A stretch of 64,000 nucleotides of DNA from a phage, in the NCBI GenBank assembly GCA_037431425.1, contig GCA_037431425.1_4129.1. The stretch is one strand, 5' to 3'. The translations under genes were made by a program, and so were the position numbers. Of the stretch, positions 34,822-36,735 are shown piece by piece (within the stretch, counting starts at the first letter, position 1; each line of letters opens with the position of its first letter). Below the pieces are notes generated by a model that did not search any database, had not been told where the DNA came from, and saw only the letters and a program-made list of their open reading frames with translations.

Positions 34822-34996
34822 GACATTCGATGAGTGGTATCAAATACATTACAATATAAATGCAGCAGATATATACTATTTTAAGCTTGAATTGTATATA
34901 TCATTGCGTGACCCAGTTGAGTACTATAACAACATTATCAATTGTGATGATTTTGGTACATATTTTAGTATTGCAGTTATGGATAAAATAAGATGA
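34811..34996 (+). CDS. hypothetical protein
   Basis: 61 aa. Confidence 0.45.
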   Translation: MQPKTFDEWYQIHYNINAADIYYFKLELYISLRDPVEYYNNIINCDDFGTYFSIAVMDKIR

Positions 34997-35163
34997 CACA
35001 CAAAGAATGGTTAGATGAACTAAAGTTCAAACATGATCATTTTGGCCTTGGTATACGCCAGAGTCATTATGATGTGTTAAAAGATAAACAACTTTTCAAA
35101 TCATTAGTACTTGATGAGGATAGTAATCACTGGTACATCTATGAGCTTGCGGTTAGAGATTAG
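34993..35163 (+). CDS. MTHEEW-family small protein (56 aa)
   Basis: not in track; MTHKEWLDELKFKH... N-terminus homologous to tandem small ORFs at 36249-36735. Confidence 0.45.
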   Translation: MTHKEWLDELKFKHDHFGLGIRQSHYDVLKDKQLFKSLVLDEDSNHWYIYELAVRD

Positions 35164-35173
35164 AAGATATAGT

Positions 35174-35386
35174 ATGAGAGTAATTATTAATCCTACAAAA
35201 AGTTTTATGTCATCAGTTTACGGTGCTGATGATATTATCCGCATGTTACCACGTATTGAAATTGATGGAATTGAAGTGCGAAAATACGGTGATTTATATT
35301 ATGTTGTAGATTCCAATGGTGAAAAGATCTGTGATAGCTTATTCTTCAGTACTGAAGAAATGGAACACCTAATTATAATTGACTAA
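35174..35386 (+). CDS. hypothetical protein
   Basis: 70 aa from ATG 35174; track ORF 35111 overlaps previous small gene. Confidence 0.4.
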   Translation: MRVIINPTKSFMSSVYGADDIIRMLPRIEIDGIEVRKYGDLYYVVDSNGEKICDSLFFSTEEMEHLIIID

Positions 35387-35392
35387 CAAAAA

Positions 35393-35462
35393 GCGGCATC
35401 GCAAGGTGCGAGGTGAAACTTCCGATTTCCACCGCTGGTCGATTCGATTTCGACATGCCGCT
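35393..35462 (+). ncRNA. tRNA-like structure / possible degenerate tRNA
   Basis: perfect 7-bp acceptor-like stem GCGGCAT/ATGCCGC and T-arm-like GTCGA-TTCGATT-TCGAC; D/anticodon region non-canonical (best loop CTTCCGA). Confidence 0.3.
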
Positions 35463-35473
35463 CAAATTTTTCA

Positions 35474-35501
35474 TTGACAACCTCAGTATATTTGCTATAA
35501 T
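35474..35501 (+). promoter_or_regulatory. sigma70-type promoter (TTGACA-16-TATAAT)
   Basis: consensus hexamers upstream of 35536 gene. Confidence 0.65.
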
Positions 35502-35535
35502 CACTTCAGATGAATAAATCCACGAGGTATCCAAA

Positions 35536-35736
35536 ATGACAAAAGCAGAACTTGTTGCATTATTGGAATCATACCCTGATGATGCATGTATTGAAATTGT
35601 ACATACTACACGACATTTTGACATTGAAGATGTAGTACGTTATAATGATAAAGGTGTACTAATCATGGAACTGTGTATTGGTGAAGTGAAAACTGTACCT
35701 GAATCAGAAAAACGTAAAAAAATTAATCAGGAGTAA
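35536..35736 (+). CDS. hypothetical protein
   Basis: 66 aa. Confidence 0.5.
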   Translation: MTKAELVALLESYPDDACIEIVHTTRHFDIEDVVRYNDKGVLIMELCIGEVKTVPESEKRKKINQE

Positions 35737-35740
35737 TATT

Positions 35741-36013
35741 ATGCATTTTGAAAAATTCAACACAAGTCGTGACACACGCATTGATGCTCTTTATGAAACC
35801 CAAGACTCAATTAGTATTCGTACACGTAGTGGTGATGTATATCATGACTGTACTATTGGTTGGGAACAGGGAAGAACACGTAGTGCAGAATTCGATAACT
35901 ATCGCTTCTACCAAGGGGACATCACAATCTGGCCTGAAGACGTAGAAGATATTGCAATTGAAGATGAACATAAAGATGAATTTATCAAATTTAATCCCGA
36001 AACCGAATCATAA
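35741..36013 (+). CDS. hypothetical protein
   Basis: 90 aa; RBS AGGAG. Confidence 0.55.
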   Translation: MHFEKFNTSRDTRIDALYETQDSISIRTRSGDVYHDCTIGWEQGRTRSAEFDNYRFYQGDITIWPEDVEDIAIEDEHKDEFIKFNPETES

Positions 36014-36056
36014 ATAACGGGACAACACAAAAAGATGTGATATAATTATTAGTACT

Positions 36057-36143
36057 GGTGAAGTGGCAGAGCGGTTTAATGCACTTGTCTTGAAAACAAG
36101 CGAGGGTGAAAGTCCTCCGTGAGTTCAAATCTCACCTTCACCG
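36057..36143 (+). tRNA. tRNA-Ser (anticodon UGA)
   Basis: manual fold: acceptor GGTGAAG/CTTCACC, anticodon loop CTTGAAA, long variable arm, T-arm GTGAG-TTCAAAT-CTCAC. Confidence 0.8.
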
Positions 36144-36150
36144 CAAAAGA

Positions 36151-36224
36151 CGGGGTATAGCACAATTGGATAGTGCAAGAGAATTCTAATCTCTAGGTTG
36201 GGGGTTCAAGTCCCTCTACCTCGG
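36151..36224 (+). tRNA. tRNA-Arg (anticodon UCU)
   Basis: manual fold: acceptor CGGGGTA/TACCTCG, anticodon stem AGAGA/TCTCT, loop ATTCTAA, T-loop TTCAAGT. Confidence 0.75.
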
Positions 36225-36248
36225 CCTACTTCAATTAAAGGTTAAACC

Positions 36249-36413
36249 ATGACGCATGAAGAATGGATGAATGACATTAATTTTAGATATGCAGGTATCG
36301 GTAACTGGAGAAAGTATCATTGGGAAATCATATCAGACCCAGCAGAATACGATAAACTTATGAATCATGAAGTGTATCCGTGGTTCTTTATTGAAATAAT
36401 GGTACGATTATGA
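36249..36413 (+). CDS. MTHEEW-family small protein (54 aa), tandem copy 1
   Basis: not in track; MTHEEWMNDINFRYAGIG... Confidence 0.45.
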   Translation: MTHEEWMNDINFRYAGIGNWRKYHWEIISDPAEYDKLMNHEVYPWFFIEIMVRL

Positions 36414-36574
36414 CACATGAAGAATGGATGAATGACATTAATTTTAGATATTCGGGTATCGGTAAATGGCTAAAGTATCATTGGGAATTCATTTCAGAGC
36501 CACATCTGTATGATAAACTTATCAACGATTCTGCATATAAAATGTACTTAATTGAACTACTGGTACGAACATGA
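36410..36574 (+). CDS. MTHEEW-family small protein (54 aa), tandem copy 2
   Basis: MTHEEWMNDINFRYSGIG...; start overlaps upstream stop. Confidence 0.45.
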   Translation: MTHEEWMNDINFRYSGIGKWLKYHWEFISEPHLYDKLINDSAYKMYLIELLVRT

Positions 36575-36735
36575 CACATGAAGAATGGATGAAACGCCAA
36601 AAAATAAAGTGGAATCCTTATTATCTACCATTAGATTCTAGAATGTGGGATGTTATACGTGTTAAGTGTATGTACAAAGCATATTTAAGTACTGAACTCG
36701 ACGAAGAAGTACTGATGCATATCGTGCACCGATGA
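36571..36735 (+). CDS. MTHEEW-family small protein (54 aa), tandem copy 3
   Basis: MTHEEWMKRQKIKW...; overlapping start/stop. Confidence 0.4.
   Translation: MTHEEWMKRQKIKWNPYYLPLDSRMWDVIRVKCMYKAYLSTELDEEVLMHIVHR

Follow-up and report, generated by a model that had tools for sequence, protein, structure and literature searches.

The 64,000-nucleotide (nt) phage contig GCA_037431425.1_4129.1 (assembly GCA_037431425.1; hereafter the window) carries a family of micro-genes between positions 34811 and 36735, in two clusters, the second of which follows a pair of tRNA genes (Table 1). In this second cluster three genes, representing subtypes A, B and C, stand head to tail with 4-nt ATGA stop/start overlaps and an exact period of 161 nt. 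An earlier note, made from the letters of the window alone, had described three perfect tandem copies and one dispersed copy. The coordinates, the length of 54 amino acids (aa), the overlaps and the 161-nt phase of the array all stood, but the copies are not perfect: the A and B proteins are 67% identical and the C protein is 25% identical to A. The homologue at 34993, which is 28% identical to A, was likewise borne out by a full-length profile match and by the motif ATGACNCAYRARGARTGG, which occurs exactly four times in the 64 kb against 0.17 expected, a count reached in 0 of 100 shuffles. It is not a lone dispersed copy, being half of a pair with the open reading frame (ORF) at 34811-34996, and the family in the window therefore has five members in two clusters rather than three plus one. 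Searches with the PHROG 10970 profile hidden Markov model (HMM) matched the array genes and the 34993 gene at E values of 1e-24 to 1e-28, over profile positions 1-55 or 1-56 of 56, and since each of these ORFs matches the profile over its full length the homology of the diverged copies is secure.

Table 1. Family members, tRNA genes and predicted promoters at the locus (positions in the window)
Feature	Position	Strand	Details
Diverged fifth member	34811..34996	+	61 aa, MQPKTFDEW...; PHROG 31562 E 1e-41; ATGA overlap with the 34993 gene
Subtype D member	34993..35163	+	56 aa, MTHKEWLDELKFKH...; PHROG 10970 E 1.4e-28
Predicted sigma-70-like promoter, extended -10	36019..36046	+	GGGACA-16-TATAAT, upstream TG; consensus scan 10/12
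tRNA-Ser(tga)	36057-36144	+	ARAGORN; Rfam tRNA
tRNA-Arg(tct)	36151-36226	+	ARAGORN; Rfam tRNA
Array gene 1, subtype A	36249..36413	+	54 aa; PHROG 10970 E 1.8e-26
Array gene 2, subtype B	36410..36574	+	54 aa; PHROG 10970 E 4.9e-24
Array gene 3, subtype C	36571..36735	+	54 aa, MTHEEWMKRQKIKWNPYY...; PHROG 10970 E 4.5e-26
Predicted sigma-70-like promoter	36748..36775	+	TTGACT-16-TATAAT; consensus scan 11/12; 3' boundary of the array's transcription unit

Because the third unit of the array is too diverged in its DNA, Tandem Repeats Finder reports the 161-nt period with 2.1 units only, at 81% identity. Past the first 20 nt, C has nearly no DNA similarity to A or B, yet its protein matches the family HMM at E 1e-26. 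Nucleotide identity between A and B falls along the gene in a 5'-to-3' gradient, from 95% in the first third to 65% in the last third. Subtype B is a recent duplicate of A, and recent homogenisation of the two at their 5' ends is likely.

The window is part of an Asteriusvirus, a 121Q/PBECO4-like coliphage of about 350 kb. Its DNA in this region is 96% identical to that of phage ph0011 and 86-93% identical to that of BF17, 121Q, PBECO4, G17 and others, and all 38 records matching the region are Escherichia or Salmonella phages of about 350 kb. Homology searches with the small proteins confirmed the family both in PHROG 10970, whose 37 phage records are all Asteriusvirus, and in Asteriusvirus genomes. 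The genes are thus not unannotated novelties, as GenBank and PHROGs hold them already; the array genes are listed as hypothetical proteins, for example 121Q gp125-127 and phAPEC6 gp094c-096c. Array order and position are the same in 121Q, G17 and phAPEC6, and in annotated loci the array follows tRNA-Ser. A profile search of 1.84 billion representative proteins recovered 23 clusters at 50% identity, nearly all of them of 43-64 aa, starting MT(H)xEW and ending ..AVR. Among isolated phages no family member was found beyond Asteriusvirus, a tblastn search with divergent metagenomic members returning Asteriusvirus alone, at no more than 40% identity. A weak match to 'phage IA-38', considered as a possible new host genus, proved to be a partial, unverified Asteriusvirus record and was set aside. 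When IMG/VR was scanned for the DNA pattern of the N-terminal motif, 67 loci came up, of which one, 121Q itself, was a true family locus and the rest were chance matches. Profile searches against Pfam, NCBIfam and PDB sequences yielded no match to the family, nor did the PADLOC defence-protein models at E values up to 10, and no paper discussing this micro-protein family came to light in a literature search that covered Asteriusvirus, 121Q and paralogues.

Selection on these ORFs was assessed with family copies from nine genomes by Nei-Gojobori estimation of the ratio of nonsynonymous to synonymous substitution (dN/dS) within orthologous subtypes. The ratio was 0.17 for subtype A (differences at the three codon positions, 70/48/123), 0.21 for D, 0.28 for C and 0.33 for E; it was 0.44 for F, which is represented by two distinct sequences only, and 0.60 for B, in which there are very few substitutions. 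Substitutions were concentrated at third codon positions in the proposed frame, while in the two other frames, used as controls, the proportions of synonymous (pS) and nonsynonymous (pN) differences were about equal. According to the earlier note, frame-shifting indels tolerated in other phages would have indicated a noncoding DNA repeat. Across 16 Asteriusvirus genomes the verified records contain no such indels, and the array copies are 165 nt long in 15 of the 16, the sole exception being a 50-aa copy of C in the UNVERIFIED CMSTMSU record. Given the absence of frame-shifting indels and the in-frame purifying selection, we therefore conclude with high confidence that these are real protein-coding genes under purifying selection, and the same confidence extends to the evolutionary part of our account.

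The converse, that the locus is a non-coding 161-nt repeat with a regulatory or recombination role whose ORFs are accidental, could draw on the period found by Tandem Repeats Finder, on the extreme shortness of the ORFs and on the lack of a clear Shine-Dalgarno sequence ahead of copies 2 and 3. We give it almost no credence, as the in-frame dN/dS of 0.17-0.33 stands against neutral off-frame controls, length is strictly kept, and C retains its protein match with almost no DNA similarity to A or B. Paralogues at 20-30% identity moreover share a predicted fold and core pattern, and an Rfam scan of 34000-40500 returned tRNAs alone, with no RNA element in the array. The conserved N-terminus, moreover, is constrained at the protein rather than the nucleotide level: synonymous codons vary at T2 (ACA 29, ACT 11, ACG 5) and H3 (CAT 25, CAC 9) as they do elsewhere in the genes. 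Since synonymous sites vary, a signal in the nucleotides, or gene conversion, was rejected as the sole cause of the conserved 5' end across the family.

The number of copies differs among related phages, a comparison that the earlier note had proposed. In the 16-genome census each isolate carried 5-7 family members. Following tRNA-Ser/Arg, the array had the composition A-B-C in nine genomes, A-C in five and B-C in two; by subtype, A was present in 14/16 genomes, B in 11/16, and C and D each in 16/16. The upstream cluster always contained a G member, with D, E and F after it in varying combinations. One metagenomic protein (P0007) is an A/B hybrid, resembling A in its N-terminal half and B in its C-terminal half. 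We infer unequal recombination between phased units, because the A/B identity gradient, the P0007 hybrid and the decayed copies all fit it; copy number would accordingly change through exchange between repeats that are in phase, as the sequences suggest.

Several irregular copies and insertions were seen at these loci. In 121Q, gp115 (L002:1694-1756) is a truncated 20-aa ORF, MTHEEWLVQTEHLVIASMKF, which occupies the slot of an E or D copy elsewhere and looks decayed. A frame-shifted variant of subtype C (P0016), on an ENA contig of 1.4 kb, likewise looks decayed but may owe its frameshift to a sequencing error. The D and E copies are separated in some genomes by an ORF of 504 nt (167 aa) that runs into the E copy through an ATGA-type overlap (L001:1922-2425 in ph0011, L008:1806-2309 in A4, L083:1022-1525 and L084:1023-1526); it is absent from that position in the window, G17 and 121Q, and may be a mobile insertion.

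A far larger array occupies the same place in uncultured relatives. Divergent family members were taken from three Logan assemblies, ERR4503900_124 (78 kb, L077), SRR34023385_7387 (108 kb, L078) and L079. In L077, 26 consecutive genes of 50-66 aa extend over 8001-12713, and at 23 of the 25 junctions the adjoining genes either overlap, by 20 nt at the most, or are separated by no more than 2 nt. The family HMM recognises 19 or more of these 26 genes at E<1e-4, and a cluster of tRNA-Leu, Gly, Ser, Arg and Met genes lies 50 nt beyond the end of the array. Similar arrays are present in L078 (7835-12132) and L079 (3063-6861). L077 is syntenic with the window at 29.2-35.4 kb, at 27-75% protein identity, and is therefore a distant relative carrying its array in the same genomic slot. 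Between L077 and L078 the array genes have a median pN of 0.21, a dN/dS (omega) of 0.30 and amino-acid identities of 51-81%, against a pN of 0.03, an omega of 0.12 and identities of 78-98% for 17 flanking genes; by these sequence comparisons family members diverge several times faster than their neighbours. In the uncultured arrays many genes end in ..A(V/L)(R/G)x, with the codons GTGAGA, GGGAGA or GGAAGA, 5-10 nt before the next ATG; at that distance the conserved C-terminal Arg/Gly codons may at the same time provide the following gene with its Shine-Dalgarno sequence. In the window copies the C-terminal Arg is encoded by CGA, without such a signal.

These comparisons bear on whether the duplicates do anything individually. 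They could be largely dispensable and nearly neutral products of slippage or unequal recombination in a plastic region, with little function of their own, as would be suggested by the absence of A or B from 7/16 genomes, by truncated or frame-shifted remnants such as 121Q gp115 and P0016, and by the higher omega of the array than of its flanks (0.30 vs 0.12) together with the dN/dS of 0.60 for subtype B. We consider this improbable, however, as omega is well under 1 for nearly all members and C, D and G are kept in all or nearly all of the 16 genomes. Furthermore, the paralogues have diverged to 20-30% identity with frame, length and fold intact, which would not be expected of neutral pseudogenes at 35% GC.

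The metagenomic sequences also connect the first gene of the upstream pair to the family. A family HMM that includes metagenomic intermediates, and from which the 34811-34996 ORF and its orthologue were left out, recovered this ORF among 1697 window ORFs at E 1.9e-5 (21.9 bits, HMM positions 2-54). Direct comparison with the narrow family by hhalign gave a weak result (probability 7%, P 0.005), and bridging sequences (..DFSTYFSIAV..) toward the ORF are present in L077 and L078. On this sequence evidence we assign the 34811-34996 ORF to the family as its fifth member and join PHROG 10970 and PHROG 31562 in a single superfamily; PHROGs lists the two separately, and it is the metagenomic intermediates that connect them here.

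The proteins are soluble, aromatic-rich and about 54-61 aa long. Their composition is hydrophilic, with 18% aromatic residues against a background of 12% and 4.4% Trp against 1.1%. AlphaFold2 (AF2) modelling of subtype D gave a predicted local distance difference test (pLDDT) score of 86.5 and a predicted template modelling (pTM) score of 0.60, with helices at residues 3-14, 23-30, 32-40 and 47-53, and an earlier run with a shallower alignment produced the same topology. Foldseek searches of PDB and BFVD using the first model (pLDDT 71) returned no match below E 4. The confident prediction is thus of a compact four-helix domain with an apparently new fold. In the AF2 model Thr2 sits just before helix 1, with Glu5 three residues on, and S/T-x-x-E is the classical helix capping box. 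The conserved M-T-x-x-E-W would fit a helix N-capping box plus a core tryptophan, and because a T2/E5 capping box with Trp6 in the core suffices to account for it, no targeting signal need be invoked.

The conservation of this segment nonetheless invites comparison with proteins that are packaged in the head and injected. The T4 internal proteins have a conserved N-terminal capsid-targeting sequence, and their loci are copy-number polymorphic among T-even phages. The micro-protein family is alike in combining a conserved N-terminal motif with a divergent remainder at a locus that is polymorphic between related phages, and the MTHEEW N-terminus might accordingly be a targeting or processing signal and the variable rest a cargo: it is the most conserved segment in paralogues that are otherwise about 25% identical, and Asteriusviruses resemble T4 in their prohead protease and have an inner body (PMC7247149). 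The orthologues in phAPEC6 (gp094c-096c and gp099c-101c), however, contribute 0/6 to the 62 virion proteins identified by mass spectrometry in one published data set, and that virion proteome did include a protein of 4.7 kDa (PMC7247149). Unlike in the T4 proteins, homology and predicted fold here cover the whole protein and not the N-terminus alone, and no conserved protease site follows the motif; a Leu/Ile-x-Glu site is found only in subtype D (L-D-E, residues 7-9), not in A, B, C, E or F. With T2-x-x-E5-W6 more simply read from the model as a helix N-cap plus a core residue, packaging and injection seem very improbable.

A role as small phage regulators or structural nucleic-acid-binding proteins, for example transcription modulators, has a precedent in another jumbo phage. 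In Bacillus phage G a Zn-ribbon micro-domain has expanded to roughly 35 copies, a large lineage-specific expansion of a tiny domain that was read as transcription factors or DNA-binding proteins (PMC7824862). The likeness lies in a very small domain present in tens of copies within one jumbo-phage lineage, and an early, promoter-rich context would suit such regulators; the fold is unrelated, the model here being all-helical and without a metal-ligand pattern. Paired CxxC/H metal-ligand motifs were sought, and the 47-sequence alignment contains no conserved Cys pairs. Neither a helix-turn-helix nor another DNA-binding match was found, and charge is mostly acidic to neutral (median pI 6.0, range 4.4-9.8, with 23 acidic and nine basic proteins among the 47 members), all of which makes a regulatory role decidedly unlikely.

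The array is embedded in a context of tRNA genes and promoter-like sites. The tRNA pair, scored by Rfam at 60.4 bits (Ser) and 62.7 bits (Arg), ends 22 nt upstream of copy 1, and the same arrangement is seen in 121Q, G17 and ph0011. The promoter-like site at 36019 stands ahead of both the tRNA pair and the array, and a search inside the array found no terminator-like site; the tRNA-Ser/Arg pair is probably co-transcribed with the array. Subtype A has an AAGG nine nt upstream of its start, and since B and C are without a clear Shine-Dalgarno sequence, termination-reinitiation at the ATGA overlaps is a likely route by which the downstream copies would be translated.

Two further kinds of element were noticed in this region. 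Promoter cassettes, consisting of an A-run and then TTGACTAAATAGTTCAGTRCTG(A)TATAAT, occur on the + strand at 36732-36789, 37152-37198, 37521-37570 and 38280-38329, each ahead of a small ORF; the first two, of which the first includes the predicted promoter at 36748, agree at 96% over 47 nt, those at 37521 and 38280 match more loosely, and the cassettes recall the mobile promoter cassettes of T4-type hyperplastic regions. Between the ORF at 35174-35386 and a promoter-like site at 35474, a 71-nt segment on the + strand (35393-35463) has 57.7% GC in a region of roughly 35% GC and contains an acceptor-like stem of 7 bp and, with TTCGATT as its loop, a hairpin resembling a T-arm. Only with the threshold relaxed (-ps80) does ARAGORN report a tRNA-Gly(tcc) here; the segment has no Rfam match and a fold z-score of -1.8, and it does not align with the tRNA-Gly of G17. 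As G17 and 121Q carry a normal tRNA-Gly(tcc) shortly downstream of the D copy, the segment may be a decayed or atypical tRNA-Gly.

The earlier note had called micro-gene amplification next to tRNA genes unusual. The adjacency itself holds, even in distant relatives, but for the window the adjective is overstated, because short ORFs among tRNAs in early promoter-rich regions are usual for large T4-related and Rak2-like phages (PMC5259590). Short ORFs and RpoD-type promoters are plentiful in one region of the related Rak2-like phage CBB, and the authors of that study read the region as early host-takeover genes (PMC5259590). The window genes are like those of CBB-type early regions in being AT-rich, on one strand, tightly packed and of 50-190 aa. 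Further likenesses to CBB- and T4-type regions are the tRNA genes, the recurrent cassettes with sigma-70-like promoters and, nearby, insertions of homing-endonuclease type. T4-type hyperplastic regions carry repeated early-promoter cassettes. Such regions are usually mosaics of unrelated ORFans, whereas here one family is amplified in phase, 5-7-fold in isolates and about 26-fold in relatives. What is unusual is the array of about 26 genes in uncultured relatives, which lies outside the window.

The constancy of the tRNA linkage raises the possibility that the proteins act upon the tRNAs of phage or host, or neutralise those host defence nucleases, anticodon nucleases for instance, that target tRNA. 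All genomes examined, including the distant L077, have family members interspersed with tRNA genes, a diversified repertoire would suit polymorphic nucleases, and the phAPEC6 authors raise the possibility that Prr, an anticodon-nuclease system, is countered by the phage (PMC7247149). The proteins, however, carry no RNA-binding signature, given their median pI and the preponderance of acidic over basic members, and no similarity to a known antitoxin or nuclease inhibitor was found. The linkage may also simply reflect the gathering of tRNAs and small ORFs in one plastic early region, where A4 and ph0011 have mobile-looking insertions. A tRNA-linked function is consequently unlikely in our estimation.

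Taken as a whole, these observations are best explained, and we hold this with moderate confidence, if the family consists of early, translationally coupled, non-virion accessory proteins that have diversified as host-interaction factors. Transcription would be early and by host sigma-70 RNA polymerase from the predicted promoters, partly on the tRNA transcript, and the products would be accessory factors sharing one scaffold with varied surfaces. Because the scaffold is kept and the surfaces vary, a set of binders aimed at host proteins, in takeover or counter-defence, seems the most likely form of such a function, and host interaction taken by itself is a tentative assignment, which we rate as possible but short of probable.

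Several points weigh against this explanation. Single copies are dispensable, as A or B is missing in 7/16 genomes and 121Q gp115 is a 20-aa remnant. Promoter-like sites in the region are no more frequent than in shuffled sequence (15 found vs 17.4 expected). Early timing and translational coupling are read from sequence, and a literature search gave no Asteriusvirus RNA-seq, Ribo-seq or infected-cell proteomics. Every omega is below 1, and the faster evolution may come from a loosening of constraint on genes that are short and redundant instead of from an arms race; moreover, some of the reciprocal-best-hit array pairs may be paralogues, which would inflate the divergence.

A more specific form of the host-interaction explanation, which we regard as a long shot, is that the phased array is a counter-defence repertoire in which each micro-protein neutralises a different variant of a polymorphic host effector. 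One four-helix scaffold would have been amplified to up to about 26 diversified micro-proteins, and unequal recombination between the 161-nt units would gain, lose and shuffle specificities; tRNA-targeting nucleases would be plausible targets because the linkage to the phage tRNA cluster is constant. Bacterial polymorphic-toxin loci contain tandem arrays of diversified immunity genes. The phage array resembles these in its head-to-tail, small, fast-diverging paralogues with a common scaffold and variable copy number, although the analogy is one of architecture only: these genes belong to a phage, not to a bacterium, and in neither sequence nor fold do they resemble a known immunity family. No toxin domain was called beside the array, its neighbours being tRNAs, small hypothetical ORFs and, in L077, DUF1353 and T5orf172 domains.

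Elsewhere in the window, two + strand ORFs at 33361-33930 (189 aa, MNFIKFNTSE...) and 35741-36013 (90 aa, MHFEKFNTSR...) have 5' ends that are 80% identical over 25 nt and may be another pair of paralogues, possibly the 'first' small-protein family of the earlier note. A long C-5 cytosine DNA methyltransferase-like ORF at 24441-26330 (+) has an interrupted catalytic motif (...LLMGGFPC / FPAGTMIMT ... NNIVVHN / CQAWSVAGKQGG...), and its sequence suggests an intein within the PCQ active-site motif.

Paralogue expansion in jumbo phages is already known as a general pattern, and an earlier study put forward tandem duplication in phages of the 121Q type (PMC7247149). Considered alone, the window holds an annotated hypothetical-protein family of a well-sampled phage genus and is in that respect ordinary. 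What is new is that the family is shown to be coding, with a confidently predicted and apparently new four-helix fold, that two PHROGs are merged into one superfamily, and that uncultured relatives have, in the corresponding syntenic position, about 26 micro-genes in phase, evolving several times faster than their neighbours. The question of their function is directly testable, because 121Q, phAPEC6 and G17 can be cultured on E. coli and natural two-copy and three-copy variants exist. Arrays of this kind are promising places to look for factors of host interaction or counter-defence, the majority of which still await discovery in jumbo phages, and if the array were indeed a counter-defence repertoire, it would be a viral counterpart of bacterial immunity-gene arrays.

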